Source: a virus
IMG/VR virus record: IMGVR_UViG_3300044691_000591
Coordinates: 20,850-84,849 of that record
Direction: 5' to 3' (one strand)
DNA length: 64,000 nt
Below the pieces are notes generated by a model. That model had not been told where the DNA came from. It saw only the letters and a list, made by a program, of their open reading frames with translations, and made no database searches. How positions within the stretch are numbered: position 1 is the stretch's first letter; each line of letters starts with the position of its first letter. Positions 13,952 through 46,014 of the stretch are shown here, one piece after another. A program made the translations under genes and the position numbers.

Positions 13952-13954
13952 GGG

Positions 13955-19045: not shown

Positions 19046-19063
19046 TGCGACCTCCCTTCCCGA

Positions 19064-20562: not shown

Positions 20563-20572
20563 GAGGGCCTCC

Positions 20573-21650: not shown

Positions 21651-21656
21651 GCGCCA

Positions 21657-22049: not shown

Positions 22050-22051
22050 GG

Positions 22052-22393: not shown

Positions 22394-22394
22394 G

Positions 22395-22784
22395 TCAGGT
22401 GTACCTCGGGTACTTGAGGGCCTTGATCGACCCGGTGAACCCGGTCGCGAAGTCGATGCTGACCGAGCCGTCGGCCTGCAGGATCCGCGCCGAGGCGAAC
22501 GGCCCCAGCCAGGAGGTGCCCGGTGCGGCAGCGACCGGCAGGACCAGGTCGCCGGCGCCGCCCTGGAAGCGGTTGCCCGCCCGCAGGGTCACGGTCAGGG
22601 CGCCGGCGGTGGTGTTGGACACGAGCAGGATCAGGTGCTCGGGGGAGACGCCGGGGGCGATGGTGGCGCCGTTGGTCACCAGAGTGGAGTCGATGGTGGT
22701 GCCGAGCGCGGAGCCGCCCGATGTGGCGTCGGACAGGTTGCTGTTCGGGGCGAGGGCGCTGGGCACGATTGCGGTACGAGACAT
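22395..22784 (-). CDS. hypothetical protein, possible capsid decoration
   Basis: Beta-rich 129 aa directly after the MCP. Confidence 0.65.
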   Translation of the reverse strand: MSRTAIVPSALAPNSNLSDATSGGSALGTTIDSTLVTNGATIAPGVSPEHLILLVSNTTAGALTVTLRAGNRFQGGAGDLVLPVAAAPGTSWLGPFASARILQADGSVSIDFATGFTGSIKALKYPRYT

Positions 22785-22802
22785 GGCAGTGGTCCCTTCG
22801 GC

Positions 22803-26065: not shown

Positions 26066-26092
26066 CGATGCGCCAGGCGATGCGGGGTGTCC

Positions 26093-29684: not shown

Positions 29685-30929
29685 TTACGCATCGGGTTCA
29701 CGGGCGGTCCAGCGCTGGACACCGGCCCTGGCCGTCCAGCGGGACTGTTCGGGGGCGCAGGCCGTCCAGCGCTCGGGGGCGGCCCTGACGGTGAAGACAA
29801 TGTCCCGACTGGCGGCGCCTGCGACGATCGGCCTCGCGGTGCCGGTCTCCACGGCCGGCCCGAGGGCGGCGGCCTTGGCGCCCGTCAGCGGCTGGGCCGC
29901 CTCGACGGATACGGCCACGCCGAGGGTTTGACTCGCCATGTGCGCCAGGGGCTGTGCGGACTCGGTCTGCGCGGCGACAGGAAGCGGCGCGGCCTTGGCC
30001 CCGGCGACGGCCTGCCCGGCGGCGACCTCAACCGCAGCACCGGGCGTGGCCGTCTTGCCGCCGGCCGGGGCCTGCGCGGAGTCGGCCGTGGCGGCAGGGC
30101 CGAGGAGGCTTGCCTTCGTGCCGGCCAGTGCCTGTGCCGACTCGGCCGCGGCGGCGAAGGCCAGGGCAGCGGCCTTGGCGCCCGTGGCGGGCTGCGCCGT
30201 CTCGGTGGCGGCTCCGATACTGAGCGGTGTCGTCTTCGTCCCGGTCACCGACTGGGCGGACTCGACGGCGCCCGCAAAAGTGATGGTGGCCGTCTTGGCG
30301 CCGGCGAGCGACTGCGCGGCGTCGGGCCCCGCGGCGATGCCGAGGGTGGCCGACTTCGCCCCCGTGAGCGTCTGGGTGGTCTCAATGCCGCTGGCGATGC
30401 CGAGGGTTGCGCCTTCGGTCACGTCCGCGGCGGCGAAGTTGTCGTAGCGGAGCGCGCTGGCTGAGTCGCCGCGGATGCCGACGCTGGTGCCGGTCGTGAC
30501 GGCCGTGTTGGTGACGGAGATGCGCAGGGTGCCGTTGACGTATCCGGTGATTGCCGAGCCGACTGCCTGGATCTTGACGACGTCGCCCGCTACGGCTGCC
30601 GCAGCGTAGGTGCCGATGCTGGTGAAGCTGCTGCCGACAACCTGGAACAGGTCCCAGCTCGTGCCGTTGTTGCGCAGCAGGTAGCCCTGGGTGAAGCCCA
30701 CATTTCCGCGGCACCACACGCCCTGGCTCGCCACCGTGGTTGCGGGGATGGCGACCTGCGCGTAGTGGTCGTTGCTGGCCATGGCGGTCGCGGCGCGCAG
30801 GACGATCGTGCCGCCTGCTGCGCCGGGTGAGAGCTGGTTGGAGACGACCGTCCAAGTGCCGGATACCTGGACCCAGCTGGCGCCGACAGCTCCGTCGGCG
30901 CGGTTGAAGTCGTCGGTGAACGTCGTCAC
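29685..30929 (-). CDS. fibre-like protein with lectin/ConA-like head and ten 20-aa repeats
   Basis: GTG start VTTFTDDFNRADG...YDNF; periodic A/T-rich repeats. Confidence 0.75.
   Translation of the reverse strand: MTTFTDDFNRADGAVGASWVQVSGTWTVVSNQLSPGAAGGTIVLRAATAMASNDHYAQVAIPATTVASQGVWCRGNVGFTQGYLLRNNGTSWDLFQVVGSSFTSIGTYAAAAVAGDVVKIQAVGSAITGYVNGTLRISVTNTAVTTGTSVGIRGDSASALRYDNFAAADVTEGATLGIASGIETTQTLTGAKSATLGIAAGPDAAQSLAGAKTATITFAGAVESAQSVTGTKTTPLSIGAATETAQPATGAKAAALAFAAAAESAQALAGTKASLLGPAATADSAQAPAGGKTATPGAAVEVAAGQAVAGAKAAPLPVAAQTESAQPLAHMASQTLGVAVSVEAAQPLTGAKAAALGPAVETGTARPIVAGAASRDIVFTVRAAPERWTACAPEQSRWTARAGVQRWTAREPDA
29811..30410 (-). repeat. ten degenerate 60-bp (20-aa) coding tandem repeats
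   Basis: ATLGIASGIETTQTLTGAKS / ATLGIAAGPDAAQSLAGAKT / ... / AALGPAVETGTARPIVAGAA. Confidence 0.85.
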
Positions 30930-31699: not shown

Positions 31700-31861
31700 A
31701 TGGAGACCGTCGTGACGGTGCAGGCGCGCAGCGAGGCCGAGGCTGAGCGGTGGCTGGAGAAGCTGCGCACGATCGGACTGGAGCCCGTGTCGGCGCCGAA
31801 GCAGCCGGTGGGGCGCGACAGGTGGATGGTCCGCGCCCGGCCCGCGACTCAGCCAGGTTGA
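31700..31861 (+). CDS. small hypothetical protein (53 aa)
   Basis: METVVTVQARSEAEAERWLEKL...; not in the ORF track. Confidence 0.5.
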   Translation: METVVTVQARSEAEAERWLEKLRTIGLEPVSAPKQPVGRDRWMVRARPATQPG

Positions 31862-32049
31862 TCGACGCGACTGCCGCTGTCCACGTCCACGCCGATCTTC
31901 TGCAGCTTCCCCCCGAACGACACCGTCGCGTTGACCACCGTCCCGCCGTCGGCCCCGGTCCGCATCGCGTCCTGCACGAACGCGGCCACCTCGTCCAGCG
32001 TCAGGAACTGGCCTCTGTCGGCCGCGTGCTCGACCTTCTTCTTCGCCAT
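31849..32049 (-). CDS. small hypothetical protein
   Basis: RBS GAGGATGAGG; MAKKKVEH... Confidence 0.55.
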   Translation of the reverse strand: MAKKKVEHAADRGQFLTLDEVAAFVQDAMRTGADGGTVVNATVSFGGKLQKIGVDVDSGSRVDQPG

Positions 32050-32098
32050 GCCCTCATCCTCTCGCGTCCACCGCGCCACCGTCCGGCGGTCGCGGGCG

Positions 32099-32731
32099 TC
32101 AGTGCCACGGTGCGGGGCCGGTCCGGGACGCCCAGGCGGCCAGGGCCTGCTCGTCGAACAGGCGCAGCCCGACGCGCCGGCCGAACGCGGCGGCCTGCTC
32201 GGTGAACGTGGACGTCGTCACCACTGCGGCGAGGTCTGCGCCGTGGATCTGCCGGTACGTGCCGTTGACCGCCTGCACCATCGGGGAGCGAACCGGGTTG
32301 CCGACGGCGTAGCGCTTGGCCTGGATCAGGATCCGGCGGCCGTCCGGGGTGGTGGCCAGTACGTCGGCGGCGAGGTCTCCTGCTCCGCCGACGACGGTGA
32401 CGTTGCGGCAGCCGTCGCGGCGGCACAGGTCGGCGAGGGCGTGCTCGAACTGGGTCGGGCTGAGCCGCCGGAAGTCCATGACGGGGCGCCGGCAGTAGGG
32501 CGCGATGGTGCGGCGCTGAGCGCGGTGCATCTTGATGTACACGAAGCCAATGGCGGTGGTGGCTGCGATTGCCGCAACGCAGATCATGATCTGCGGGTGC
32601 CGGGAGAGCCACAGTGCGGCGTCGAACAGGATCAGGGCGGCAATGATCAACATGGGGCCGGTGATCCGCTGGCGCTGTACGCGCCTGCGCAGTTGGGCTT
32701 TCGCCTGGCGCACGCGGAGAGGTGTGGTCAC
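32099..32731 (-). CDS. membrane-anchored Mrr-type restriction endonuclease (Mrr_cat)
   Basis: Two TMs, then LSPTQFEHALADL...GGAGDLAADV...ILIQAKRY...VVTTSTFT. Confidence 0.85.
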   Translation of the reverse strand: MTTPLRVRQAKAQLRRRVQRQRITGPMLIIAALILFDAALWLSRHPQIMICVAAIAATTAIGFVYIKMHRAQRRTIAPYCRRPVMDFRRLSPTQFEHALADLCRRDGCRNVTVVGGAGDLAADVLATTPDGRRILIQAKRYAVGNPVRSPMVQAVNGTYRQIHGADLAAVVTTSTFTEQAAAFGRRVGLRLFDEQALAAWASRTGPAPWH

Positions 32732-34995
32732 GACTGGCTCATCTCGGGGACAGGCAGCCCGTACTCGCCGCTGGCGGCCGGGTTGCGGAGGATGGTGCCG
32801 TCCTTGACCAGGCGGCTGACCGTGTTCTCGACCGTCTTGCGGGCGACACCGGACTGGTCCGTGATGGCGTCCAGGTGCAGGTAACCGACGTCCAGACCGA
32901 TCGGGTCGCGGTACTCGCCCAGGACCGTGAGGATCTTCTCCTGCGCCGTCGGCTCCTTCGCCGCGGCCGGCTTCGCCTGACCGGGCGTCCACTTCGCGGC
33001 GCCGTCCTCATCCTCGTCTTCGGCGGCTGGCCCGACGGGGACCAGCGCGATCTCGCCGCGGTCCTCCCACTCGGGCCAGTCGGCGGGAATGACGATCTGC
33101 TCCGGATCGAACAGGCCGGCGGCGGACTCCAGGATCCACAGGCGCATCATCTCGGCGCGGTCGTCGGGCCCGACGGTGTAGCCGACGCCGAACGTGCGGC
33201 TGGGGTCGTCGTCGGGGACCGTCGGGTCGTAGATCAGAGTGTCGTCCTCGTCGCTCTTCCAGAACGCCGGGATCTTGGCGGGGTCGACGCCCGCGAACGC
33301 GTCGGGCAGGTCGACCCGGTTCCTCTGGTCGCTGTCGGAGCGCAGCAGGATCAGGGCGCCGCCGTAGAACACGTTGTCGCGGATGGAGGTGTCCGAGCCC
33401 ATCTTGTCGAGGTTCAGGATCTGCCCGCACAGGATCAGGATCAGGCCCAGTGAGCGGCCCTGCTCGGCCAGGGCGGCGATGATGAATGCCGCCTCGGCCT
33501 TGTTGGTTGCCTTCTCGCCGAGGAGCTGGGCGAACTCGTCCAGGACCACGGCGGTGTAGGGCATGTCGGCGGTCGGGACGAAGTTCTTCATCCGCAGCCG
33601 CTGCGACTGCTCGACGCGGTGCAGGAGGAGGGCGTAGGCCACGCGCAGGGCGCCCATCGCACCGTCGATACCGCAGCCGGGGTAGGTGGCCATGTCCTCG
33701 ACGTCGGGGTTGCTGGAGCCCTTGGGGTCGGCGTAGATGATCGCGACCCGGTTGACGTGGTAGCTGAGGCACAGGAGCTGCAGCGCCCCGCCCTTCCCGG
33801 AGCCGGTCACCCCGGCGATCAGGACGTGCCGGGCGCCCATCCTGGTGTCGTACAGCTGCACGCGGGCAGGGCGGCCGGAGATGCCGGTACCCAGGTTCAC
33901 GAACCCGTTGGCGTTGGCGAGCAGCGTCTCGGGGCCAGGCAGGGGCTGGCCGGCTTCCAGGGGTGAGCGGTCCATGAGCCGGAGCTTGGCCCGGCGGGGG
34001 TTGTTCGTGGGTTCGACGGACGTCAGCAGGGTGGTGGTGCGAAGTGCTCCGGCGATGCGGTATGAGTCGGGGGCGGTGACGGCGTCGGTGTCCTCGTCGG
34101 CGACGACCCATGCGGCGATGCCACCGGTTGCAGGGTCGGGGACGATGCCCTCCAGGTGGGTGCCGGGCATGCAGCCGCCCTTGTGGCCCACACGCCGCAG
34201 CCACAGTGCCTCCAGGGCGCTGTACTCGGCCACGTCGACGGTCGGCGCGACCACGTCGACGTGGATGTGGCGAGAGCTGGTGTGCGGACCGTCAATGAGG
34301 TGGACCCGCGCCTCGGGGACGCCGTAGACCCCGGACACGGTCTCGGCGGTGACCGAGACGGGGCGGCCGGGCATCGAGTGGATCGTGCCCTCCCACGCCT
34401 CCGGGCTGTAGCCGGTCAGGGTGAGGTGCTGGCCGGGGTGCGCGCCGTCCTCGCTGGAGATCCAGTCGTGCCAGTACTGCAGGACGTCGCGCTCCGGCGT
34501 CGGCTCTGGGACTGGGGCGGCGGGCGCGCGGTAGGCGGCGACCGCGCGGGGCTTGCGCAGGACGCGGCGCAGCGCGAAGTGGATGTAGCCGGTCGCGGAC
34601 CACCAGGCCACCGACACAAAGCCGGCCACGGAGGGCAGCGTCATCCAGCCGGCGGCCAGGGAGTCGATTCCGGGCCAGCCGTACTGCGTCGCGGTGGCCG
34701 CCGCGGTGGCGGTCGCGATCGCGGAGACCAGGAACGGCTCGCGGTGGGCGCGCACGATGTCACCGCCCGGCAGGGCGTCCAAGTGCTCATCGGACAGCAG
34801 GTGCATGTAGTTCGCGCCGGCGGCCAGGGCGGGTACGGCCAGCAGGCAGCTGACGGTACTCGCGGCCTGACCGTCCAGCAGCGGCAGGGTCAGGGCGGTC
34901 GCCAGCGGGGCGGCGACCTGAGCCACGGCAAACCGCTTCTCGGCGGCAGGGTTCGGCAGCGCCTTGGCCGCGGGCGTGGTGTCGTTGGTGGTCAC
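32728..34995 (-). CDS. FtsK/SpoIIIE-family conjugal DNA translocase (Streptomyces TraB-like)
   Basis: N-terminal TMs; HVLIAGVTGSGKG Walker A; YADPKG; VVLDEFAQ Walker B; QGRSLG arginine finger; C-terminal winged helix. Confidence 0.88.
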   Translation of the reverse strand: MTTNDTTPAAKALPNPAAEKRFAVAQVAAPLATALTLPLLDGQAASTVSCLLAVPALAAGANYMHLLSDEHLDALPGGDIVRAHREPFLVSAIATATAAATATQYGWPGIDSLAAGWMTLPSVAGFVSVAWWSATGYIHFALRRVLRKPRAVAAYRAPAAPVPEPTPERDVLQYWHDWISSEDGAHPGQHLTLTGYSPEAWEGTIHSMPGRPVSVTAETVSGVYGVPEARVHLIDGPHTSSRHIHVDVVAPTVDVAEYSALEALWLRRVGHKGGCMPGTHLEGIVPDPATGGIAAWVVADEDTDAVTAPDSYRIAGALRTTTLLTSVEPTNNPRRAKLRLMDRSPLEAGQPLPGPETLLANANGFVNLGTGISGRPARVQLYDTRMGARHVLIAGVTGSGKGGALQLLCLSYHVNRVAIIYADPKGSSNPDVEDMATYPGCGIDGAMGALRVAYALLLHRVEQSQRLRMKNFVPTADMPYTAVVLDEFAQLLGEKATNKAEAAFIIAALAEQGRSLGLILILCGQILNLDKMGSDTSIRDNVFYGGALILLRSDSDQRNRVDLPDAFAGVDPAKIPAFWKSDEDDTLIYDPTVPDDDPSRTFGVGYTVGPDDRAEMMRLWILESAAGLFDPEQIVIPADWPEWEDRGEIALVPVGPAAEDEDEDGAAKWTPGQAKPAAAKEPTAQEKILTVLGEYRDPIGLDVGYLHLDAITDQSGVARKTVENTVSRLVKDGTILRNPAASGEYGLPVPEMSQS

Positions 34996-34999
34996 AGTC

Positions 35000-35368
35000 C
35001 TACTCCTGCCGGTACCAGGTGCGGTTGGCCATCTCGACGGGGGAGCGGTCGCGGGCTTCCTTGATGCCGCCGTGGGTGGTGACGGTCGCCTGCTCGGCGG
35101 CGACCGCCGCGCGGGATGCCTCGTCGGCGGCGTTGGCGTAGGCGAGCGCGGCCGTGGACACGCCCTGCATGATTCGCGAGACCTCGCGGGTCTCGGCAAC
35201 GGTCGCCGGATCGACCTTGAGGGCGGCGGTCTGCTCGGCGATGCGCCCGGTGTCCTTGGCCTGGGCGTCCATCGCGGAGGCCATCTTCTTGTGCCTCTGG
35301 GTGGCGCGCCGCACGTCCCGGGCCAGGGCCCGCGTCTCGCGCAGCAGTTCGCCATAGGTCAGTGCCAC
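35000..35368 (-). CDS. conjugation-associated helical protein
   Basis: All-alpha 122 aa just upstream of traB; HGGIKEARDRSP...RTWY tail. Confidence 0.7.
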   Translation of the reverse strand: MALTYGELLRETRALARDVRRATQRHKKMASAMDAQAKDTGRIAEQTAALKVDPATVAETREVSRIMQGVSTAALAYANAADEASRAAVAAEQATVTTHGGIKEARDRSPVEMANRTWYRQE

Positions 35369-35369
35369 G

Positions 35370-37037
35370 TCAGCCCCCCTGCTTGTCCATGTAGAACTCC
35401 CGCTCGGCGGGCGTGGTCAGAGGCGAGTCGACGACTGCCCGATAGATGCCGCCGTGCCGGGTCTCGGCGTTGGCGGCCAGGACGCGCACCGCTTCACTGC
35501 CGCGCTGGGCGCTCTTCTCGATCTCCTCGGCCCTCAGGCGCAGCACCTGGGATCGTTCCGCGAGGCGCGACAGAAGCGCGACGATCCGGGCACCCCCATG
35601 GACGCTCTTCGCGTTCTCGGCCAGGCGCTGCGCCCGGGTCGCCATCTCCACGGCCTGCAGGCGGGTGGCCTTGCTGCCCTCGGCGACGCGGCCCATCGCG
35701 GCCTTCTTGTCACCCAGGCGGCGTTCGAAGGCCTTGAGGGTGCGGACCTCGCCGCGGCTCATCGTGTGGCTCGCCCCGTCGGCGACGAACTCGACGGCCT
35801 TGTCTCCGACGGAGGTCACCCGTGCGGGCTCTGCAGCAGTCGGGGCCGGCTTCTTGGCGAGGTCGACGGTCGACCCGCTGGCCGGCGGCAGCTTCGGAGC
35901 GGCTGACTTCTTGGGCTTGACGGCGTTGCGGGCCCGGGTGTCGCTCATCTTCTTGCCCTCCGCCTTGTCGGCGGCGGTGCGGTCGTCCCAGCCGTCGACA
36001 GCGCCGTCCTTGTAGGCCCTGGCCTGTCCGACGGTCGCGGCGACGCGGGTGCCGTCGCGGTACCCGGCCTCCCGCGCGGGGCGGGTGCGCAGCTTCGGAG
36101 CGGCGGCCGGCTCGGTTGTCGCGGCCGGGCTCGGCTTGGCCGCGGCGCTGGTGTCCTTCACCAGATCGACGGGCGCAGTGTCGTCGGGCTTGATCGCAGC
36201 GGCGGTCTTGGTGTTCAGGCTCTTCGGGTCGGCCTTCTTCGTCAGGTCCGGTCCGTCGGGGCGCGCGGCAGCGGGCGTCGAGGGTTCCGGCGTCTTGGCT
36301 GCGGTGCCGCCTTTCGCGCTCGCGGGCCCCGCGGTCTTGGCGTCCGCCCCCTTGGGGCTCGGGCCCTTGGCGGTCTTGGTGTCGCGGTAGTCCCGGTCGT
36401 CGTTCTTGGAGACCGTGTCCGCTGTCGCGGCCTTCGCGTTCGACGTCTTCGCGGCGCTACTGTCCGCCTTCTTCAGATCCTTGTTGTCCCGGGCTGCAGT
36501 GTCGGCCTTCGACGTCCTGGCGTCGGAGGTCTTGGCGTCCGTCGCGGCCTTGCGGTCGCGGTTGGTCCTGCCCTGCTGCGTCTTGTTCCGGAGGTCGGCC
36601 AGCTTGCTGTCGCGGGTGGCGTGGGCCTTGCCGTCGTGCCGGTGCGTGCGCTCGGCCTTGTTCGTGCCGGTGCTGGTAGCGCCGGAGACCCGGGCCTCAG
36701 TGATGGTGTGGGTCCGCTTGACCGCTGTACCGCCGCGGGCCAGCCGGGCGGCCAGGGCGTGCACCAGGGCGGCCACGGCGCTGCCGCGGTTGTTGTCGCC
36801 TGGACTGGCCTTGCCGTTCTTGCCGTTGCCGCCCTTGGCGCTGGCCTCCTCGGAGACCTCGCCCATGGTCGCCGTGGTCCCCAGCGGCTTCACCGGCCGG
36901 GCGGGCTCGACCGGCGTCAGGATCCGCGCAAGCGGGCCCGGCGCCGTGGCCGGGGCGGCTGCAGCAGCGGGTCCTGCGGGCGCGGCCGACTGCTCGGTCA
37001 CACCGGCCGGGACGGGCGGCGCGGTCGCTGTCGCCAT
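35370..37037 (-). CDS. A/K/P-rich transfer-region protein with conserved C-terminal helical domain
   Basis: RBS GAGGAG; low-complexity N-terminus; C-terminus paralogous to 35000-35368. Confidence 0.7.
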   Translation of the reverse strand: MATATAPPVPAGVTEQSAAPAGPAAAAAPATAPGPLARILTPVEPARPVKPLGTTATMGEVSEEASAKGGNGKNGKASPGDNNRGSAVAALVHALAARLARGGTAVKRTHTITEARVSGATSTGTNKAERTHRHDGKAHATRDSKLADLRNKTQQGRTNRDRKAATDAKTSDARTSKADTAARDNKDLKKADSSAAKTSNAKAATADTVSKNDDRDYRDTKTAKGPSPKGADAKTAGPASAKGGTAAKTPEPSTPAAARPDGPDLTKKADPKSLNTKTAAAIKPDDTAPVDLVKDTSAAAKPSPAATTEPAAAPKLRTRPAREAGYRDGTRVAATVGQARAYKDGAVDGWDDRTAADKAEGKKMSDTRARNAVKPKKSAAPKLPPASGSTVDLAKKPAPTAAEPARVTSVGDKAVEFVADGASHTMSRGEVRTLKAFERRLGDKKAAMGRVAEGSKATRLQAVEMATRAQRLAENAKSVHGGARIVALLSRLAERSQVLRLRAEEIEKSAQRGSEAVRVLAANAETRHGGIYRAVVDSPLTTPAEREFYMDKQGG

Positions 37038-37059
37038 CACGGACTCCTCTCTCGATTGA

Positions 37060-37165
37060 CCCCCCACCCACCCCCCACCCGACCTGAGAGAACAGGGTCG
37101 GGGCTCTGACCTGCACGGGAGAGCCGTATGCGCGCTCTCTTGGCGGGTGGGGGGTGGGTGGGGGG
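37060..37165. repeat. perfect 22-bp G/C-run inverted repeat
   Basis: CCCCCCACCCACCCCCCACCCG (37060-37081) pairs with CGGGTGGGGGGTGGGTGGGGGG (37144-37165). Confidence 0.9.
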
Positions 37166-37171
37166 AGATGA

Positions 37172-37741
37172 CTAACGGCTGCGTGCGGTCAGCAACTTCT
37201 TCGCCTTGCCGCCGACCAGCACGACACCGATCGACCCCAGGACGATCAGCCCGACGTTCGAGCCGGTCCCCGCCCCACCGCCGGTGCTGCTGGTGCTCGA
37301 CGCGTCGGCCAGGGCGGGCGAACCGGTCGCCGGGTAGATCGAGCCGCAGTCCGACACCCCGCCGAAGTTGTTGCCGGCCTTCGCGATGCACGCCTCCACC
37401 GCGAGACGACGAGCCCGCTGAGCAGGGGTTTCCTGCGCAGCGGCCTTCGCCTGGGCGGCGGCCTGCTGCTCCTGGGCCAGCTGCACCCTCGCCGCATCCA
37501 CGGCGACCTGGCCGGCGCGGATATGCGCGTTGGCCTGGTTGGCCTCGTACTGCGACCACGTGAACATGCCAGTGGCCGCCACGGCCGCGAAGCCAAGACC
37601 GAGACCGGCCTTGGCGCGAGGGCTGAGCTTGGCCGGCGGCGGGGGCTCCGTCGGCTTCGGCGTCTGGTAGGGCTGATAGGGCATCGAGCTGATGTTGTAG
37701 CCGGGATCGTTGTAGGGGGACTGGTAGCGGTACTCGGTCAT
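37172..37741 (-). CDS. membrane protein (Spd-like)
   Basis: TM at each end with a coiled coil between; coupled to the spdA-like gene. Confidence 0.7.
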   Translation of the reverse strand: MTEYRYQSPYNDPGYNISSMPYQPYQTPKPTEPPPPAKLSPRAKAGLGLGFAAVAATGMFTWSQYEANQANAHIRAGQVAVDAARVQLAQEQQAAAQAKAAAQETPAQRARRLAVEACIAKAGNNFGGVSDCGSIYPATGSPALADASSTSSTGGGAGTGSNVGLIVLGSIGVVLVGGKAKKLLTARSR

Positions 37742-38637
37742 TGCTCTTCTCCATTCAGGGCTGGGACATCTGCGCGGTCGAGGATCTCCGCGCGGATCGT
37801 CTTCGCGACGGTGTCCGAAGGCAGCCCGTGGCCGGCTCGGTCGATCGCTTGGGCGAACTCGTTGGCGGTCGGCTGGCGCCGGAGGCGTTGGAACTCGGCG
37901 TGGAAAATCGGCTTGGCGATCTCCACCCACTCGTCGAGTGGGCGACGGGGCGGTCGCTTCCCGGCGGCGGAACGGGGCGCCTTCGGTCGACGAGTCGTCG
38001 GCGGCTTGGCCGGCTTCTCGTCGACGGAAGGTGCGTCGGAACGGTCGACGGAAGCCGTCGGGTCGTCGACGGTTCGGGCCGGTTCCGACGCGACGGGAAG
38101 CGTCGGTTCGACGCCGCTCCCGTCGACGGGAGCCCGTGTTCCGTCGGTCGTTCCGTCGTCGGCAGCGGACTGATCCGTCGCAGCATCCGTCAATGACTCG
38201 GTCGGCTCCCGTCGCGGGGTGAGGAACTTCTTGATCTGTCCCATGAGGACTGCGAATGACAAAAGCGCGCCGCAAGGTGGGACCGCTGCGACGACGTAGG
38301 TCATGGGCGCGGCGCCTGCTCCGACGCCGGCAACGTTGAGGGCAACGGAGCCGACGGAGCCGATCAGAGTCAGGCAGATGGCCCACCCGTCAGTCCGGCG
38401 GAGCAGGTTGGCGACGAGGACCATCACCTCGCCGAGGACGATGAAGGTGTCGACGGTGCCGGGCCACGCCCAGGCGCGAGCTGCTCTGAGGCCGTGGCCG
38501 CTGGCAACGTCGTGGAGGTGCTCGTAGGAGAGCCAGAACGCTGCGGCGGTCAGGGCGATGGAGAGGATGACCGCGAGCAGCATGAGGCGCCGGATAGTCT
38601 CCGGCGAAGCGACGGGACTGTCGTCGGTCTCGGTCAT
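37738..38637 (-). CDS. SpdA-like DUF2637 membrane protein
   Basis: AAFWLSYEHLHDVA...RAWAWPGTVDTFIV...SVALNVAG...VAAVPP. Confidence 0.8.
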   Translation of the reverse strand: MTETDDSPVASPETIRRLMLLAVILSIALTAAAFWLSYEHLHDVASGHGLRAARAWAWPGTVDTFIVLGEVMVLVANLLRRTDGWAICLTLIGSVGSVALNVAGVGAGAAPMTYVVAAVPPCGALLSFAVLMGQIKKFLTPRREPTESLTDAATDQSAADDGTTDGTRAPVDGSGVEPTLPVASEPARTVDDPTASVDRSDAPSVDEKPAKPPTTRRPKAPRSAAGKRPPRRPLDEWVEIAKPIFHAEFQRLRRQPTANEFAQAIDRAGHGLPSDTVAKTIRAEILDRADVPALNGEEQ

Positions 38638-38639
38638 GG

Positions 38640-39530
38640 TCAGCTCCCCTGCTTGGCGGCGGTGAGCGCCTGCTCGTTGTGCCCCCGGATGAAGTCGGCC
38701 AGGGGTCCGGTGTTCTCGAACCACTCGGTGCTGCCGACGCGCTGGTCGGCGAAGCGCTTGTGCATGGCCTGCTCCATGCGGCGGTCACCGGCAATGAGCA
38801 GGACGATGTCGCTGGTGCGCAGCGAGAGGGCGCTCACCCGGGCGCGGAGGCTGCTGGTCGTGCCGATCTTGACGCGGCTGCCGTTGCCGATGAAGTAAAC
38901 GTGGGCCTTGTGCTTGCCCTCCGGGACCGGCCAGTTGAAGCGCGGCTCTGCCGGCTTGGCAGCCATGGGCGCGGTCGCCGGCGCGTCGAGGTTGAGGTGG
39001 GCGAGCGCAGCCAGCCGCCTTTCCAGCCGAGCCTTCTGCCTCTTCGCTTCGAGCGCTACGCCGCGCTGCTTGTTCCGCTCGATCAGGAGGTGGTCGATCT
39101 CGGACTGATCGTCCGGGTGCAGGGACTGGGTCTTCATCCAGGCGCGCCACAGCCACGTCACGGGGATGGCGAGCATCGAGATCACCGCGCCGTCCCAGGG
39201 TCCAGTGCGAGGCCAGCCCGTCCAGGTGATCAGCGAGAGGATGATCACCTGGAGCAGCAGACCGCCGCGGCGGCCGAGAAAGGCGCCCTCGGAGTCGTAG
39301 CGGTTGTCCCACTCGACCCAGGCGCACCAGAGCCAGAGCAGGCCAAAGATGCCGCCGGCGAGATACATCTGGACTTGGTCCTGCCACGTCTTGGCCCATG
39401 GAGCGAGCAGGGACCCAAGGAGCCCCGCCTCGCAGGTGGCAGTCACGAACATCAGGACGGCGGTGATCCATCCGGTGACTGCTGCCTCGTGGTCGCGGGA
39501 CTCCTTGGTGGGCTGCTCGATCGTGCTCAC
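38640..39530 (-). CDS. membrane protein with C-terminal GIY-YIG (T5orf172/Mug113-like) domain
   Basis: Four TMs; VYFIGNGSRVKIGTT...EQAMHKRFADQRV..EWF. Confidence 0.8.
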   Translation of the reverse strand: MSTIEQPTKESRDHEAAVTGWITAVLMFVTATCEAGLLGSLLAPWAKTWQDQVQMYLAGGIFGLLWLWCAWVEWDNRYDSEGAFLGRRGGLLLQVIILSLITWTGWPRTGPWDGAVISMLAIPVTWLWRAWMKTQSLHPDDQSEIDHLLIERNKQRGVALEAKRQKARLERRLAALAHLNLDAPATAPMAAKPAEPRFNWPVPEGKHKAHVYFIGNGSRVKIGTTSSLRARVSALSLRTSDIVLLIAGDRRMEQAMHKRFADQRVGSTEWFENTGPLADFIRGHNEQALTAAKQGS

Positions 39531-39669
39531 GTGTTGCTGCTCCTATTCGGGCGACGTGGATGCGTGCTCTGCGGGGTGGCGCCCGTCCCGCCGGGGGTGC
39601 GGGCCGGGCGCCGGGCGTCCAGTCCGGCCGCGGGGGACGGAATCGGGCTGGACGCGTCTTGGGGCTGCC

Positions 39670-39894
39670 TCAGTGGCTGAGGCAGCGGTCGTGGTTGGAC
39701 ATGGTGCAGGCGGCGCGGCGGGCGCGGCGCTGGGGCATGATCTCGGCGTAGTAGGCGTCGGAAGCCTTCTGGCGGGCGGCCGCGTCGGCGGCTTGGCGCC
39801 GGTTGTCGGCGGCGGCTTCCTGGCGGCGCTTCTCGGAGTCGTGGTAGCTGGTGTCGGTGGCGGGTGCCTTGGGTGCGAACGGGTTCCAGGCCAT
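39670..39894 (-). CDS. hypothetical protein
   Basis: RBS GGAGGA; packed in the operon. Confidence 0.6.
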   Translation of the reverse strand: MAWNPFAPKAPATDTSYHDSEKRRQEAAADNRRQAADAAARQKASDAYYAEIMPQRRARRAACTMSNHDRCLSH

Positions 39895-39897
39895 GCG

Positions 39898-40218
39898 TCA
39901 GTCCTCCATTGCGGTGAGCTGGGGCAGGTGTCCGCCGTTGAGTTCCCGCAGCTGGTTGAGGGCGGTGCGGAAGGCGTCGGCGGCGTCGGGGCGTTGGGCG
40001 TAGCTGGCGTCGACGAGGTTCTGGGCGAGCTGGTTGACGCGGGCGACGGCGGCGGTGACCTGGTCGCGCTTCTCTTCGGCCTGACTCGCGAGCCAGAGGG
40101 CGTGGAAGTCGACGGCACCGTCGGCTGCGGTGTACTGGTCGAGGACGGCTTTGATCTCCGCGTCGGTGGCGGGGCGTCCGCCGGGCTGGTCTGCGCTGTA
40201 GATCGTGGGCTGGGTCAT
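39898..40218 (-). CDS. hypothetical protein
   Basis: ATGA-coupled to the upstream ORF. Confidence 0.6.
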   Translation of the reverse strand: MTQPTIYSADQPGGRPATDAEIKAVLDQYTAADGAVDFHALWLASQAEEKRDQVTAAVARVNQLAQNLVDASYAQRPDAADAFRTALNQLRELNGGHLPQLTAMED

Positions 40219-40358
40219 CGGTGGGCCTTCTTCGTGGCGTGCACGGTCGGGTGGCTGGGCGCGTAGGTGTGGGCGCTGGCGGTTCCGGCGTGGCTGTAGC
40301 ACCAGATCGCGGCGCCGATGATCGCGGCGACGGCGCACTTGGCGAGGAAGGCCCTCAT
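40215..40358 (-). CDS. small signal-peptide-like protein (47 aa)
   Basis: MRAFLAKCAVAAIIGAAIWCYSHAGTASA...; ATGA overlaps on both sides. Confidence 0.55.
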   Translation of the reverse strand: MRAFLAKCAVAAIIGAAIWCYSHAGTASAHTYAPSHPTVHATKKAHR

Positions 40359-40768
40359 CGCGCACCGCCTGCCTGGTTGTAGAGCACGGCACCGTCGGGG
40401 TAGCTGAGGCCGTAGGCGGCGGCGAGTTTGCGGGCCATGTCTTCGACGCCGTCCTCGAAGCCGTCCGCGTCTTCGCTGCCGGTGAGGTAGTGGTCGACGT
40501 AGGTGAGGAGCACGTCCTGGGCGGTGTCGTTGTCGGCGTCGAGGGCGTCTCCGAGGTAGGTGAGTGCGGCGTTGAGGGTGTCGGCGTGGTCTTGGTCGCT
40601 GGCTTCGAGGTGGTCGCGGGCGGCGGTGAGGAGTTCGGCGAGGGTGACGCCGTCGATGTCGGTGTGGCCGCCGGGTGGGCAGCCGGGGGCGAGGAATGCG
40701 ATGTCGTTGGCGTGGCGGGCGATGATCGCTTTGAGGCGGGGGCTGGCGTCCGGGTCGGTGGCGGTCAT
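40355..40768 (-). CDS. acidic hypothetical protein
   Basis: Coupled operon gene. Confidence 0.6.
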   Translation of the reverse strand: MTATDPDASPRLKAIIARHANDIAFLAPGCPPGGHTDIDGVTLAELLTAARDHLEASDQDHADTLNAALTYLGDALDADNDTAQDVLLTYVDHYLTGSEDADGFEDGVEDMARKLAAAYGLSYPDGAVLYNQAGGAR

Positions 40769-41016
40769 GCCGGGCTCCCGAGCTGGTTGGGCTCCAGGGA
40801 GAAGAACAGGACCGTCGGGGGCTGGCCGCCAGTGGCGTCCTTCATCACGAAGGCGCGGACGACCTCGTACACCTCGGCGCGGGTCTGGCCCGGCTCCGGG
40901 GTGAAGGTGGAGCGCCAGGTGCCGGAGATTTCGCCGTCCCGGGTGGGCCACTGTGCGGACATGACCCAGTGGTGGCTGCCCTGCGGGTTCGGGCCGGGAG
41001 GCGTCGGGGTGCTCAT
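40765..41016 (-). CDS. hypothetical protein (paralog of 41013-41249)
   Basis: HWVM...VLFFSLEP. Confidence 0.6.
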   Translation of the reverse strand: MSTPTPPGPNPQGSHHWVMSAQWPTRDGEISGTWRSTFTPEPGQTRAEVYEVVRAFVMKDATGGQPPTVLFFSLEPNQLGSPA

Positions 41017-41249
41017 GCCGCACCGCCGATGGCGTCCGGTGTGAGCGAGAAGAACAGGACGACGAACTCGGCACTGCCGATCTTGTCGGCCACGATGTCG
41101 CGGATGACGTTGTAGCTGCTGGTGTGGGTGTGCATGCCGGGGACGGCGTTGATCGATCCGTCGAAGGTTCCCTGGAGTCCACGGGGCGATAGGGCCGTCA
41201 TGATCCAGTGGAGTTCGATCTCGGGGAGCCCTGCCTCGGCGGCGTTCAC
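41013..41249 (-). CDS. hypothetical protein (paralog of 40765-41016)
   Basis: HWIM...VLFFSLTP. Confidence 0.6.
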   Translation of the reverse strand: MNAAEAGLPEIELHWIMTALSPRGLQGTFDGSINAVPGMHTHTSSYNVIRDIVADKIGSAEFVVLFFSLTPDAIGGAA

Positions 41250-41485
41250 GCCGCACCGCCGGGCAGGTCCTCGCCGAACGCCCGGTCGGCCGCGAACTGG
41301 AACCGGTCGTAGCTGCCGTAAGCCCCGAGGGCGTGGTCGACGTCAGCGTCGGTGGGCCAGGTGGCGGGGACCTCGGTGAGCGGACGCGACGGCGGGGCCG
41401 GAAGGGCGGTGACCCGAGCGCCGGAGCTGGGCTCTGACGGCGAGGGGGTGACGTGGTCAATGAGGTTGGCGCTACGATCTGCCAT
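41246..41485 (-). CDS. hypothetical protein, first gene of the transfer operon
   Basis: RBS AGGAAG. Confidence 0.55.
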   Translation of the reverse strand: MADRSANLIDHVTPSPSEPSSGARVTALPAPPSRPLTEVPATWPTDADVDHALGAYGSYDRFQFAADRAFGEDLPGGAA

Positions 41486-41528
41486 GTTCGCTTCCTGTTC
41501 AGAGCAGGTGGCGGATGTACTCAGCCCG

Positions 41529-41620
41529 GTGTGCAACCACCGGATTGAGGTTGGGCCGCCGGGTGTGCAACCACCCGGCGGCCGTTCTGCGGCCCCGATC
41601 CGACTGCAACACCGGATTGG
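41529..41620. promoter_or_regulatory. repeated operator-like motifs and hairpin in the divergent tra/regulator intergenic region
   Basis: GGTGTGCAACCACC occurs twice, TGCAAC(C)ACCGGATTG twice, plus a GGCCGCCGGGTG...CACCCGGCGGCC hairpin. Confidence 0.6.
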
Positions 41621-41695
41621 GGCTTTGTGTTGTGCGGGTTCCAACATACGCAGACCCGATTGACCGCGTCAACAAGGTACGGGAGACTTCACCAT

Positions 41696-41965
41696 ATGCC
41701 GACGACCTCCACCGGAGAGGAGCACCCCGACCTGATGACCATTCCGGAGATCGCCGCGTACAAGGGCCTCACCCGGCAGCGGATCCACAAGCTGGCCACG
41801 ACCGATCCGAACTGGCCAGCCCCCGCGATTCAGGCAGCCAGGACTCGTGTCTACCGGCGCACGGACGTCGACTTGTACTTCGAGACGCGCCAGGTCAATC
41901 CGGGACGCCGCACGGATCTGGAGTCGAAGCCCGACGCCACCCCACCGTCCGAGCAAGGAGCCTGA
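41696..41965 (+). CDS. AlpA/excisionase-like HTH regulator
   Basis: LMTIPEIAAYKGLTRQRIHKLA..DPNWPAP. Confidence 0.8.
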   Translation: MPTTSTGEEHPDLMTIPEIAAYKGLTRQRIHKLATTDPNWPAPAIQAARTRVYRRTDVDLYFETRQVNPGRRTDLESKPDATPPSEQGA

Positions 41966-41967
41966 TC

Positions 41968-42219
41968 ATGTCCGCCCGCTGCGACTTCACCGACCTGCCC
42001 GTAGACCAGTGCAGCCACTGCCTGAAGCAGCCCGACCCGGAGCGGGAGGAGCGCCGCGAGCTGGCCGCGCTGCTCGGCCGGCCGGGTTGGGTCGCGTCGT
42101 CGTTCCGTGGCCAGTGCGGGCATTGCGGGGAGTGGTACGGGGCTGGGATGCCGATCCATATTGCCCGGGATGAGCGGGCCTGGGTGGGCGGCTGCTGCGC
42201 GGACGTGTTCCAGCAGTAG
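41968..42219 (+). CDS. Cys-rich zinc-binding hypothetical protein
   Basis: CDFTDLPVDQCSHC...CGHCGE...GGCC; RBS AAGGAG. Confidence 0.7.
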   Translation: MSARCDFTDLPVDQCSHCLKQPDPEREERRELAALLGRPGWVASSFRGQCGHCGEWYGAGMPIHIARDERAWVGGCCADVFQQ

Positions 42220-42826: not shown

Positions 42827-43378
42827 CTAGCGGGGCGGGTCGTCGTCGGTGGCGGGCCCGATGTGCGTGGGTGGGGTCACGCCGGCCTGGCGGTAGGCCT
42901 CGCTGAGCGCGGGGGAGAGGCGGATCTCGCCCGATAGCGTACTGCGGAAGTGTCGGCGGCCGGGCGGCTTGGCGCGGGACTCGAAGGCGTTCCAGTACTC
43001 GCCGTCGTCGTCGGGCGGCACGTGCAGTGGCCGGTTGCCCTCGGCCCAGTCCCAGACGCGCTCGGCCTCGTTCATGTAGTCCGAGATCAGCACGATGCGC
43101 CCCTCGGCCGTCGGCGGTAGGAGCAGGGCGGACGGCGGGACGTCGAAGACCACGGCGAGGGCCATGAGGTCGTCCGTGTCGACGCGGCGGGTGCCGCCCT
43201 CGATCTTGCTGATTGCTGAGGCGGCGATCGGGCGGCCCAGTTCGGCCAGCTCCTCGGAGAGCTTGTAGGTCGACATGCCCAGGGCGTTGCGGATGCGGGC
43301 GACGTTCACGGCCACGACCTGCCCGGTTGGGCCCAGCTCGTTGGCTCGCCGCCTTGTCACGCTCTCATCTGCCGCCAT
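42827..43378 (-). CDS. XRE-family repressor
   Basis: NVARIRNALGMSTYKLS...AISKIEGGTRRVDTDDLMALA. Confidence 0.85.
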   Translation of the reverse strand: MAADESVTRRRANELGPTGQVVAVNVARIRNALGMSTYKLSEELAELGRPIAASAISKIEGGTRRVDTDDLMALAVVFDVPPSALLLPPTAEGRIVLISDYMNEAERVWDWAEGNRPLHVPPDDDGEYWNAFESRAKPPGRRHFRSTLSGEIRLSPALSEAYRQAGVTPPTHIGPATDDDPPR

Positions 43379-43481: not shown

Positions 43482-43709
43482 ATGCCTACGGAAGCAACGC
43501 GCCTGGTCGGAGACCCGGAAGACCTGCTCACCGCGCAGGAGGTCTCCGCGATCACCCGACTCAGGCCCCAGACCCTCGCCGACCACCGCTACAAGAAGGT
43601 CGGCATCCCCTACATCAAGCTCGGCACCAACCCGCGCGCGCCGGTCCGCTACCGCCGCCGGGACGTCGACGCCTACATGACCGACCCGCTCGCCGAGGCC
43701 AACGGCTAG
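43482..43709 (+). CDS. Cro/AlpA-like HTH_17 protein
   Basis: LLTAQEVSAITRLRPQTLADHR...GIPYIKLG...VRYRRRDV; divergent from the repressor. Confidence 0.85.
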   Translation: MPTEATRLVGDPEDLLTAQEVSAITRLRPQTLADHRYKKVGIPYIKLGTNPRAPVRYRRRDVDAYMTDPLAEANG

Positions 43710-43756: not shown

Positions 43757-44647
43757 GTGAGCCTTGAAGCGATGGACTGGGTGTGGAATCACTCCCGCTC
43801 CAAAGGTGTCGGCCGCATGGTGATGCTGGCCCTCGCCGACAAGGCGCTGCCCGCGACGGCGGACTGCCGGGCCTACGGCTCCTACCGCTTCCTGGCACAG
43901 CGGGCGAACTGCACCCAAGGGGCGATCACTGAGGCGCTCGACGGACTGTATTCGCTGGGCGAGTTGGAATTGCTGCCGGAGAAGGGGCCGATGGGCGCGG
44001 CGACGTACCGGCTGCCGAAAGCGGTTGGCCATACCCGTCCCGTGCGCGGCAATCGCTCGGCTCACCCGAGCGATTCAGACGCGAAGGCTCGAAAGGAATC
44101 GCTCGGCTCAGCCGAGCAGCAGGTGCACGGCTCAGCCGTGCGATCTGAAGCCGAATCGCTCGGCTCAGCCGACCACAACACCACCACCCCACCAAAGACC
44201 ACCACCTCCGCGCCTACCGACCCGCCTGCCTCTGGTGACACCAAGGGAGGAGGTGGAGGAGACCAGCAACAGGAAGCCGAGGCCTTCCTCCAGTCGCTGC
44301 CTTCACCTTGGACGGCAGGACGGAAGACCGCCCGCGAGCTCGCCCCGCTGCTCCTGGAACGGACAGGCGAACAGGGCTGGCAACTGGACGCCGACCTCGC
44401 CGCGCAGCTGAGCAAGAACGCCACCGGCGTCAACCACCCCGCCTCCGTCCTGCGGGCCCGCATCGACGACCTCCCGAAGAAGCCCACCGCCAAAACCCGG
44501 GCCTCGCCATCACTCCCGCCTTGGTGCGGCCAGTGCGGCGACAAGGACCCGGCCGCCGAGACCGACGCCGCCCGGCGCTTCCACCACCTCAACGACGGCA
44601 GCAGCCAACGCTGCCACTGCCACCCCGCACACCAGAAAGCAGCCTGA
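43757..44647 (+). CDS. phage replication initiator (N-terminal wHTH)
   Basis: MSLEAMDWVWNHS...RMVMLALAD; internal iterons; coupled to dnaB. Confidence 0.8.
   Translation: MSLEAMDWVWNHSRSKGVGRMVMLALADKALPATADCRAYGSYRFLAQRANCTQGAITEALDGLYSLGELELLPEKGPMGAATYRLPKAVGHTRPVRGNRSAHPSDSDAKARKESLGSAEQQVHGSAVRSEAESLGSADHNTTTPPKTTTSAPTDPPASGDTKGGGGGDQQQEAEAFLQSLPSPWTAGRKTARELAPLLLERTGEQGWQLDADLAAQLSKNATGVNHPASVLRARIDDLPKKPTAKTRASPSLPPWCGQCGDKDPAAETDAARRFHHLNDGSSQRCHCHPAHQKAA
44051..44172. repeat. four iteron-like palindromes (putative ori)
   Basis: AATCGCTCGGCTCA(C/G)CCGA at 44051, 44097 and 44154; variant GCACGGCTCAGCCGTGC near 44125. Confidence 0.75.
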
Positions 44648-46014
44648 TGAACCGCGACGAAGCACCGCCCTACCCGGACGAACAGGAGCAGCAGCGCGGC
44701 GACCGAGTCCCCCCGTGCAACCTCCACGCCGAGCAGTGCGTGATCGGCGGCATGCTCCTCTCGAAGGAAGCCATCACCGAAGCCACCGAGATCATCGGCC
44801 CCGGCGACTACTACCGGCCCGCCCACGAGTTCATCCACCGCGCCGTCCTCGACGTGTACGGGCGCGGCGAACCGGCCGACAAGGTCACCGTCGCCGCCGA
44901 GCTGGAGAAGACCGGCCGCACCCGGGAAGCCGGCGGCCCGGACTACCTGAACCTGTGCCTGTCCGTCACCCCGTCAGCGGCGAATGCGGGCTGGTACGCG
45001 GAGGAGGTGCTGCGCACCGCGATCCTGCGCCGCATCATCGGCGCGGGCACGGAACTGATCGGGATCGGGTTCCAGCCCGGCGCGGGGACGGCGAACGAGG
45101 CCCTGGACCGTGCCGCCGCAACACTGCAGTCGCTCACGGCCACAGTGGGCATGTCGATGACCAGCCGCGAGAAGCCGCTCCGCGACGTCCTCGCCGCGAC
45201 GATGGACAACTACGACTCCGACGACGGCAACTACCTCCCGCTGCCCTACAAGGACCTGCGCATCAGGGTCCCGATGGAGCCCGGCGACTTCGCGGTCGTA
45301 GCCGCCACCCCCGGGACGGGCAAGACGACGATCCTCACCGACATGGCCCGCTGCCTGTCGATCAAGCACAACCGCAGGTCGTTCTTCGGCAGCATGGAGA
45401 TGCCTCACACCCAGATTGGCCAGCGCATCCTGTGCGCCGAAGCGCGCGTCGACCTGAACCGCTTTCGCACCCGGGCCCTCACCGAGGAAGACCGGCAGCG
45501 GGTCGACCAGACGCAGAAGCGGATCGAGAACTATCCGCTGGTGATCGACGACTCCACCGCCGTGCCGGTGTCGCGCATGCGTACCCGCCTGCGCCAGCTC
45601 CAGGCTGCAGGCGAACTGCCGGAGCTGTACATCGTGGACTACCTGCAGATCGCCAAGGCGGAGGCTGAGTCGAACGCGAACCGCACCATCCAGGTCGACC
45701 ACATCGCCCGCAGCCTGCGGAACCTGGCCATGGACTTCGGGATCGTCGTGGTGGCCGCAGCGCAGCTGAACCGGCAGACGACGTCGCGGGCCGACCGGGT
45801 GCCGCAACTGTCGGACCTCCGCGAATCCGGCGGCATCGAGCAGGCGTGCACGATCGCCCTGCTGCTGGACCGGCCGGAGGTCTACGAGAAGGAGACTCCG
45901 CGCGCGGGGGAGATGGACATTCACGTCGCCAAGAACCGCATGGGCAGCACGGGCCGGCTGACCGTGGCCTACCAGGGCCACTACTGCCGCGCCGTCGACA
46001 TGGCTGCGGACTGA
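44647..46014 (+). CDS. dnaB: replicative DNA helicase DnaB-like
   Basis: PPCNLHAEQCVIGGML, AATPGTGKT, SMEM, IVDYLQI, AQLNR, LSDLRESGGIEQ, VAKNRMG. Confidence 0.95.
   Translation: MNRDEAPPYPDEQEQQRGDRVPPCNLHAEQCVIGGMLLSKEAITEATEIIGPGDYYRPAHEFIHRAVLDVYGRGEPADKVTVAAELEKTGRTREAGGPDYLNLCLSVTPSAANAGWYAEEVLRTAILRRIIGAGTELIGIGFQPGAGTANEALDRAAATLQSLTATVGMSMTSREKPLRDVLAATMDNYDSDDGNYLPLPYKDLRIRVPMEPGDFAVVAATPGTGKTTILTDMARCLSIKHNRRSFFGSMEMPHTQIGQRILCAEARVDLNRFRTRALTEEDRQRVDQTQKRIENYPLVIDDSTAVPVSRMRTRLRQLQAAGELPELYIVDYLQIAKAEAESNANRTIQVDHIARSLRNLAMDFGIVVVAAAQLNRQTTSRADRVPQLSDLRESGGIEQACTIALLLDRPEVYEKETPRAGEMDIHVAKNRMGSTGRLTVAYQGHYCRAVDMAAD

Follow-up and report, generated by a model that had tools for sequence, protein, structure and literature searches.

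The window analysed here, a 64,000-nucleotide stretch covering bases 20850-84849 of an 84,849-bp virus record from soil metagenomes (IMG/VR record IMGVR_UViG_3300044691_000591), contains a block of genes that resembles the transfer (tra) regions of Streptomyces plasmids and that lies, to judge from its sequence, within the genome of a temperate siphophage. Genes were called by third-position G+C, and the frame plot resolves window positions 31849-41672 into one co-directional, leftward operon on the minus strand, starting at a sigma70-like promoter (Table 1), in agreement with an initial annotation, made from the sequence alone, that had placed a leftward operon of about 10 kb here. Promoter-like sites number two in 13 kb against 0.3 expected, and the 160-nt leader folds with a minimum free energy of -77.2 kcal/mol (z -4.5; a stability reached by none of 200 shuffles), although its three hairpins could equally be three palindromic DNA operators.

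To learn which of the operon's genes travel together, we surveyed one genome per species of Kitasatospora and Streptomyces, which yielded 36 loci with full-length relatives of the operon's ATPase. The 507-aa protein, with its Lys/Thr/Ala-rich N-terminus and conserved helical C-terminal half, stands beside the ATPase in all 36 of these loci, the 104-aa protein is present in 34, and the 189-aa protein, a conserved core partner, in 20. Both nucleases are peripheral by the same count: the T5orf172 protein is accessory (2 of the 36 loci), and the Mrr_cat gene, common to four related IMG/VR contigs, occurs in none. Among the five small soluble open reading frames (ORFs) at the head of the operon, only that of 83 aa is conserved in relatives (tblastn). 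A resemblance of the 507-aa protein to TraA was considered and dropped, as it came from a single ESM Atlas lead of 0.80, too weak to count.

Several membrane proteins had been expected in the operon, and a transmembrane (TM) scan finds them in three adjacent genes (the T5orf172, DUF2637 and 189-aa proteins). The DUF2637 protein had been called SpdA-like; the DUF2637 assignment stands, but the SpdA label does not, as SpdA and SpdB of pIJ101 neither match DUF2637 nor show BLASTP similarity to any protein of the block. In its architecture, four TM helices followed by an acidic, Thr-rich linker and a C-terminal helical domain, the protein is instead SpdB2-like, with a start codon left in doubt by the overlap between the ORF and the gene upstream; homologues of SpdB2 have been noted on actinophages (PMC4447253), and a literature search on DUF2637 itself yielded nothing informative. 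The divergent helix-turn-helix (HTH) regulator that the initial annotation saw at 41515-42219 does not hold up: the ORF has no Pfam or NCBIfam match, only its last 83 codons look coding, and no HTH was detected in it. The HTH genes nearest to the operon are an XRE-type repressor and a divergent HTH_17 gene, with DnaB next, and the same XRE and HTH_17 pair (70-73% identity) is linked to the tra operon in a second phage-type contig, G008.

Table 1. Features of the tra block and of the surrounding phage genome (window coordinates).
Feature	Position	Strand	Evidence or remark
Sigma70-like promoter, TTGACG-18-TATGTT	41643-41672	minus	points into operon
Operon leader, three consecutive hairpins	41480-41640	minus	each with GGUUGCAC-type loop
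Five small soluble ORFs (~80, 83, 137, 106, 74 aa)	39670-41488	minus	
Membrane protein with C-terminal T5orf172/MUG113 (GIY-YIG-like) nuclease domain	38640-39530	minus	Pfam, TM scan
DUF2637 protein, four TM helices	37738-38724	minus	Pfam 56.6 bits; phrog_733; TM scan
CGACGGAA / TTCCGTCG 8-mer cluster, orientation switch midway	38020-38200		within DUF2637 gene; weak clt candidate
189-aa Pro-rich protein, C-terminal TM helix	37172-37741	minus	
Conserved long hairpin, pyrimidine arm/purine arm	37053-37172	minus	inverted repeat I2; inner GGTCAGAG motif
507-aa protein	35370-36893	minus	
104-aa helical protein	35000-35314	minus	directly 5' of ATPase; 122 aa from alternative start 35368
755-aa TraB-like FtsK-family ATPase	32728-34995	minus	
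Mrr_cat (type IV restriction-like) nuclease	32099-32542	minus	
66-aa ORF, final operon gene	31849-32049	minus	conserved in L011
Cys-rich 83-aa ORF, divergent	41968-42219	plus	coding part of ORF 41515-42219
XRE-type repressor	42827-43315	minus	co-directional with operon
HTH_17 Cro/Xis-like gene	43482-43709		divergent
DnaB	44308-46014		
Tail fibre, minor tail proteins, 1684-aa tape measure, major tail protein, major capsid protein	8817-23636	minus	PHROG/Pfam
MuF-like head protein and small HTH protein		plus	PHROG/Pfam
Large terminase subunit (TerL)	26087-27346	plus	PHROG/Pfam
Portal	27366-29054	plus	PHROG/Pfam
GH25 endolysin and glycosyltransferase cluster	within window		PHROG/Pfam
Large serine recombinase, RecT/YqaJ, Bro-N protein, XRE-type protein	in record, outside window		

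A TraB-like ATPase

The ATPase matches the Pfam family FtsK_SpoIIIE at 34.8 bits (cut-off 24), with weak matches to HerA besides, and its top Foldseek matches are FtsK motor domains (6T8G and 2IUS; E ~1e-8), the coupling protein TcpA, and EccC. In the AlphaFold2 model (predicted local distance difference test score 70), N-terminal helices extending to residue 146 lead into an alpha/beta region, a RecA-like core, and a C-terminal helix-helix-helix-wing. Residues 16-146 form four long, hydrophobic, Ala-rich helices in this model, of which a crude hydropathy scan passes only one, and the last ~70 residues are predicted to be a winged helix: the C-terminal 85 residues, when modelled alone, match only winged-helix domains, with the winged helix-turn-helix (wHTH) domains of Z-alpha, MarR and CAP as top PDB matches. 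The protein fits its original description as an FtsK-family ATPase with a C-terminal wHTH, and its hydrophobic N-terminus may be a membrane anchor. Its domain order, from this putative membrane N-terminus through FtsK motor to C-terminal wHTH, is also that of TraB of pSVH1 and of Tra (KilA) of pIJ101; the latter carries the same Pfam signature (FtsK_SpoIIIE at 38.8 bits plus a MarR-like C-terminus), albeit with only 24% identity to the window's ATPase over 197 residues. The organisation of the operon differs from those of pSVH1 and pIJ101, in that the ATPase lies near the end rather than first after the regulator and has neither a GntR partner nor recognisable Spd homologues.

In 15 relatives, some with as little as 45% identity, the catalytic motifs of the ATPase (GVTGSGKGG as Walker A and VVLDEF as Walker B) do not vary, and the GKG within Walker A is common to this protein and to the NCBIfam TraB equivalogs of Streptomyces genomes (GGTGSGKG), whereas FtsK and EccC have GKS. 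A quick maximum-likelihood tree of the motor region, rooted on EccC, sets plasmid Tra proteins, the window's family included, apart from chromosomal FtsK (support of 96 in the Shimodaira-Hasegawa-like approximate likelihood ratio test) and places the window's family as sister to the TraB equivalogs (88). A more careful tree, to which TrwB and TcpA were added and from which five TraB equivalogs, two FtsK proteins and two family members were left out, recovers the family as a separate clade (100/99), with FtsK, EccC, TcpA and pIJ101 Tra in another group (88/94) that excludes it. Three loci (L185, L186 and L206), in which no ORF with a Walker A motif was found, were dropped from the trees. The proposed comparison against TraB, FtsK and type IV coupling proteins (T4CPs) therefore separates the ATPase from FtsK, EccC and TrwB, but groups it with TraB only in the quick tree.

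The Prokaryotic Genome Annotation Pipeline names many relatives as T4CPs of the VirD4/TrwB type, an assignment that we reject, as no T4CP family in Pfam or NCBIfam matches and TrwB forms a very long, separate branch. PDB profile matches favour EccC and FtsK over DotL, and neither a relaxase nor type IV secretion system genes were seen among the ORFs examined. By its predicted structure, motifs and placement, the ATPase belongs to the FtsK superfamily as a translocase of TraB-like build, which falls outside FtsK and EccC and well away from VirD4-type TrwB. Three relatives of ~850 aa (P0085, P0093 and P0096) carry in addition an FtsK-gamma domain (PF09397) C-terminal to the winged helix, and so would have two DNA-reading domains.

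Distribution of the tra core and its cis elements

The 189-aa, 507-aa and 104-aa proteins and the ATPase make up a tra core that is homologous and syntenic across plasmids, elements resembling actinomycete integrative and conjugative elements (AICEs), and phage-plasmids like pZL12. The ATPase is encoded by 150 plasmids of Streptomyces and Kitasatospora, mostly of 85-93 kb, and the order of the core is the same in a 92-kb linear plasmid of K. indigofera (with ParAB, cargo genes and a divergent GntR gene) and in pSAM1 of S. ambofaciens, which likewise has a divergent GntR gene. Among the 25 best plasmid matches, 16 have a pZL12-type TerL and/or portal gene, mostly 1.5-4 kb from the ATPase, and pSAM1 also has a pZL12-like tape measure; on this evidence, we take these plasmids to be pZL12-like phage-plasmids. 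In pSAM1, pSLE1 of S. leeuwenhoekii and ~16 further plasmids of 85-94 kb, an ATPase of the window's type (42-46% identity) is joined by all three partners (104-aa, 507-aa and 189-aa) in the order found in the window, and in these plasmids it lies 1.5-4 kb from the terminase; unlike the window, they have virion genes of the pZL12 type and a divergent GntR regulator, and they are deposited as plasmids. In the literature, pSAM1 is described only as containing predicted prophage-like sequence, with no particles detected (PMC11302927), and pSLE1 is annotated by homology to pZL12 (PMC4487206).

Chromosomal loci extend this range. A pZL12-type TerL and/or portal gene lies nearby in 12 of the 36 genome loci, and in three Kitasatospora loci (L100, L103 and L105) the core runs on into a Prim-Pol gene, with DUF3631 in L100 and L103 and a tyrosine integrase in L103, before host-like genes follow in L103 and L105. 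This arrangement is, by gene content, the AICE layout as in pSAM2. The AICE-type loci, whose ATPases share 62-67% identity with that of the window and whose core is preceded by small ORFs and a ~185-aa gene, appear small and have no virion genes within 10 kb on either side; the window's element, by contrast, spans 85 kb with a full virion module, and no homologue of their Prim-Pol was found in it.

The core is also found with virion genes like those of the window. Four further IMG/VR contigs contain it at 66-76% identity, and G008 has a TerL (53% identity) and a portal (42%) of the window's type ~10 kb from the same XRE-tra-Mrr arrangement, while G009 has a pZL12-type TerL ~9 kb from the core. 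G008 (175,260 bp; loci L010, L094, L095, L210 and L211) contains two non-identical TerL and portal pairs 94 kb apart, one of which adjoins the single tra block copy that could be placed, so that it may represent two tandem phages or a composite element. In runs X3 and X4, from two other soil studies, the core aligned to window positions 32726-39663 is 90-99% identical within different flanks, and segments such as 39663-41926 and 32141-32725 are replaced, which points to recent exchange of the module. Because it sits on such varied backbones and does not occur within 10 kb in 80 viral loci retrieved by the portal (see below), the core is, as far as synteny can tell, a mobile module that has been joined to several phage backbones. 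FtsK-like proteins of cultured actinophages (phrog_1358 and phrog_3551) resemble the ATPase in their P-loop motor, and one such actinophage-type gene, in the portal relative G004, branches separately on a long branch.

The closest precedent in lifestyle is pZL12, also known as phage ZL12 (GQ919031), likewise a siphophage-type genome of ~90 kb, in which an FtsK-like tra gene and its neighbours lie, as in the window, between the packaging genes and a regulator and replication region (with a divergent regulator in pZL12). Its tra proteins 71c-73c, TerL, portal, capsid and tape measure nevertheless have no tblastn match to the window at E 0.01, making pZL12 an analogue rather than a homologue, and it has ParAB and a GntR regulator where the window's record has neither. 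The original description of pZL12 reportedly also covers plaques, particles and re-establishment as a plasmid. That plasmid-phages of Streptomyces were already known, as initially remarked, is borne out by its conjugal transfer locus, which comprises one main tra gene together with two genes beside it and was determined by experiment (Zhong et al., 2010, J Bacteriol 192:3747, cited in PMC3583192).

A conserved non-coding feature of the core is a hairpin between the 189-aa and 507-aa genes, formed in the window by a 31-bp inverted repeat (-82 kcal/mol). An equivalent hairpin of -60 to -100 kcal/mol occupies the same intergenic spot in at least 20 relatives, among them plasmids, AICE-like loci and viral contigs (L001, L008, L011, L097-L109, L112, L122 and L124); the arms differ in sequence, and the inner loop is often GGTCAGAG. 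In an alignment for which the best-folding 120-nt segment was chosen at each locus, compensatory changes occur in 14 of 17 pairs and 92% of cells are paired, a degree of pairing reached by none of 500 shuffles and exceeding the 60-75% of slid controls. For a cis-acting locus of transfer (clt), we counted clusters of 8-mers across the whole record and 42 related loci. The CGACGGAA cluster within the DUF2637 gene ranks joint-top of the record, tied with one in the tape-measure gene; in relatives, the clusters at the same spot are GCC-GAA (Ala-Glu) coding repeats, and its conservation at the DNA level is therefore not established.

The phage genome around the block

The virion genes, identified by PHROG and Pfam searches, together with the lack of a sheath gene among the ORFs searched, identify the phage as a siphovirus. 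CheckV puts the record at 94% completeness, and its G+C stays within 68-73% over the whole length, with no shift at the tra block relative to its flanks. A 27-bp repeat containing a palindrome with 9-bp arms occurs near both ends of the record, at distances of 35 bp and 67 bp (record bases 36-62, outside the window, and window positions 63908-63934), and the ends, when joined end to start, are colinear with an uninterrupted array of ~90-bp units in the viral contig L215, so that the genome is probably circular or permuted and its assembly was interrupted within a repeat array. The record is thus probably essentially complete and free of host flanks. Neither its right-end junction nor a hypothetical junction, passing from the upstream sequence at the right end through one 27-bp copy to the sequence following the left-end copy, has an exact match in the metagenome contigs scanned. 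The array of ~90-bp units may be an origin or operator array beside initiator-like genes. Domain searches found no match to ParA, ParB/ParB_N or GntR anywhere in the record.

As initially proposed, the block lies between TerL, portal and the capsid and tail genes on one side and the XRE, HTH_17 and DnaB genes on the other, with no integrase or transposase at its borders: the sole recombinase of the record is the large serine recombinase ~37 kb away, and direct repeats flanking the block do not exceed the level of chance. A 36.6-kb Logan contig, made with a different assembler, extends from the portal gene across the block to past 46000 (the end of DnaB) with zero differences; a second sample tiles the same path from portal to DnaB, and depth is even across the block borders. 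No contig joining directly across the block, as a block-less form would, occurs among the soil metagenome contigs compared. Given borders without integrase or repeats, the error-free spanning contig, the agreement of the second sample, and the even depth, a chimera or a nested independent element is unlikely. The full virion module, the colinear record ends and the spanning contig bear out that the block is embedded in a complete siphophage, and we regard it as real, intact, and part of the complete genome of a temperate siphophage of a Streptomyces-like host.

Three further features stand apart from the block. Between the portal gene and the tra block, a minus-strand ORF (29685-30782) contains at least six tandem 60-nt (20-aa) units and has weak PHROG matches to a virion structural protein. 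Just 5' of the DnaB gene lie three 23-nt iteron-like repeats containing a hairpin (44050-44175), and the plus strand between the lysis and tail-fibre genes (3637-8521) encodes glycosyltransferases, a methyltransferase and an NAD-dependent epimerase.

Readings of the block and their meaning

Of the roles that the block may have, virion-independent transfer or spread of double-stranded DNA (dsDNA) is the most likely, and we consider it moderately probable that the block is a TraB-type module of this kind, integral to a complete temperate siphophage genome. A fuller version is possible, if somewhat short of probable: the element would be a self-transmissible temperate siphovirus, with a serine integrase and without a partition system, that in addition uses a TraB-like pump to pass from hypha to hypha as naked dsDNA, by means of a core found in AICEs, plasmids, phage-plasmids and at least two phage lineages. 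Under this scheme, the operon would be transcribed leftward from the promoter at 41672 in the lysogenic or carrier state, with the three-hairpin leader (or operators) and the strong, conserved hairpin 5' of the tra core keeping its expression down. The ATPase would form a membrane-anchored hexamer whose C-terminal winged helix recognises a cis site on phage DNA, and would pump the phage genome, whether circular, excised or replicating, into a neighbouring hypha as dsDNA, with the four-TM DUF2637 protein and the other membrane proteins aiding passage through cross-walls. The outcome would be a second, virion-independent route by which the element spreads.

Several observations weigh against such a transfer function. 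The initial annotation called the ATPase TraB, and although its layout, its GKG motif and its position outside chromosomal FtsK agree with that name, it cannot be shown to belong to the curated TraB family: its best NCBIfam match, plasmid_TraB (NF041214), reaches 46.8 bits against a cut-off of 800, true equivalogs score 816-1005, and even chromosomal FtsK proteins score higher than the ATPase (64-67 bits). In the careful tree, deep nodes collapse, long branches abound, and the sisterhood with TraB is not recovered. The accessory proteins show no similarity to the characterised Spd proteins (pIJ101 SpdA and SpdB), the KorA/TraR-type GntR repressor of the plasmid relatives is absent from the record by domain search, and the search for 8-mer clusters revealed no convincing clt in the record. 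As for the hairpin, G-U pairs outnumber C-A mismatches on its sense strand, a bias more in keeping with an RNA element, perhaps a terminator or attenuator ahead of tra genes that could be lethal, than with a site for DNA transfer. The ATPase has no tblastn match in 50,697 deposited phage genomes, that of pZL12 included, and the block is found within 10 kb in none of 80 viral loci retrieved by their portal, so that the co-occurrence in related phages that had been looked for extends to the matching layout of G008 and stops short of the portal relatives; together, these absences suggest that the block was acquired recently by mosaic exchange. At 85 kb, the genome is also large for TraB-type transfer, an objection offset by the fact that AICE transfer mobilises chromosomal DNA, and the block's benefit to the phage is unproven.

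The same genes could serve the phage inside a single mycelium, moving its DNA across hyphal cross-walls so that many compartments are reached without transfer between individuals. TraB and the Spd proteins of pSVH1 do form an intramycelial spreading apparatus, and several membrane proteins accompany the ATPase here; yet AICE-like elements and plasmids, which must cross between mycelia, have no transfer module other than this core, and TraB performs both steps in known systems, which makes this a narrower version of the transfer hypothesis rather than its opposite, and an unlikely one if taken to be exclusive. That the block is inert, a piece of plasmid taken up recently without its cis site and regulator and of no effect, would accord with the missing GntR repressor and clt, but we think it quite improbable, given that all ORFs are intact, catalytic residues are invariant, the promoter, leader and covarying hairpin are kept, and relatives at 66-89% identity retain the whole core.

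An exclusion or defence cassette expressed from the prophage, in which a membrane FtsK/HerA-like ATPase and two nucleases block or degrade incoming DNA, would suit a block that lies downstream of and co-directional with the XRE repressor, the usual place of morons expressed in lysogeny; moreover, the Mrr_cat protein matches type IV restriction models and the ATPase weakly matches the PADLOC model mad8 (36.9 bits). These PADLOC matches, however, are generic P-loop and nuclease similarities, no system was matched, and the conserved core occupies the tra position of plasmids and AICEs without either of the accessory nucleases, leaving this explanation very improbable. Lower still do we place a block foreign to the phage, be it a separate mobile element nested within it or an assembly chimera of phage and plasmid. 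The mosaic nature of the module, its occurrence in X3 and X4 without the virion flank, and the lack of any FtsK-like gene in the closest long virion relative (G001, retrieved by its portal) are what such an origin would predict, but besides the even G+C and depth and the concordant assemblies, there is no integrase, transposase, Rep or flanking repeat to define an element, and the same arrangement is seen again in G008 and, combined with other terminases, in G009 and ~16 plasmids.

A dsDNA transfer or spread module thus remains the interpretation that we favour, and the idea of a conjugating phage is itself already known, though to date shown only for pZL12. What is new here is its combination with a different virion module and a serine integrase, without ParAB and GntR, and we found no description of the breadth of the tra module's distribution in the literature searched. 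According to a recent review on the mobility of plasmids, conjugation is not known for any phage-plasmid or prophage, a statement to which pZL12, described in 2010, is an overlooked counter-example. The tra core is common to AICEs, plasmids, dozens of pZL12-like phage-plasmids, and phages with another virion module, and in phage-type elements it usually adjoins the packaging genes; for the entire Tra family, as yet uncharacterised, the covarying hairpin is a candidate cis site or control element.

Gene flow by phages and gene flow by conjugative elements are regarded as distinct routes. Provided that the core works, phages that possess it could overcome the limits that receptors set on their host range, move on while the donor survives, and, like AICEs, mobilise host DNA, and such elements would offer a tractable means of comparing the costs and benefits of two routes within one genome. 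Should the window's element indeed be self-transmissible, conjugative phages would represent a recurrent lifestyle in mycelial actinomycetes.

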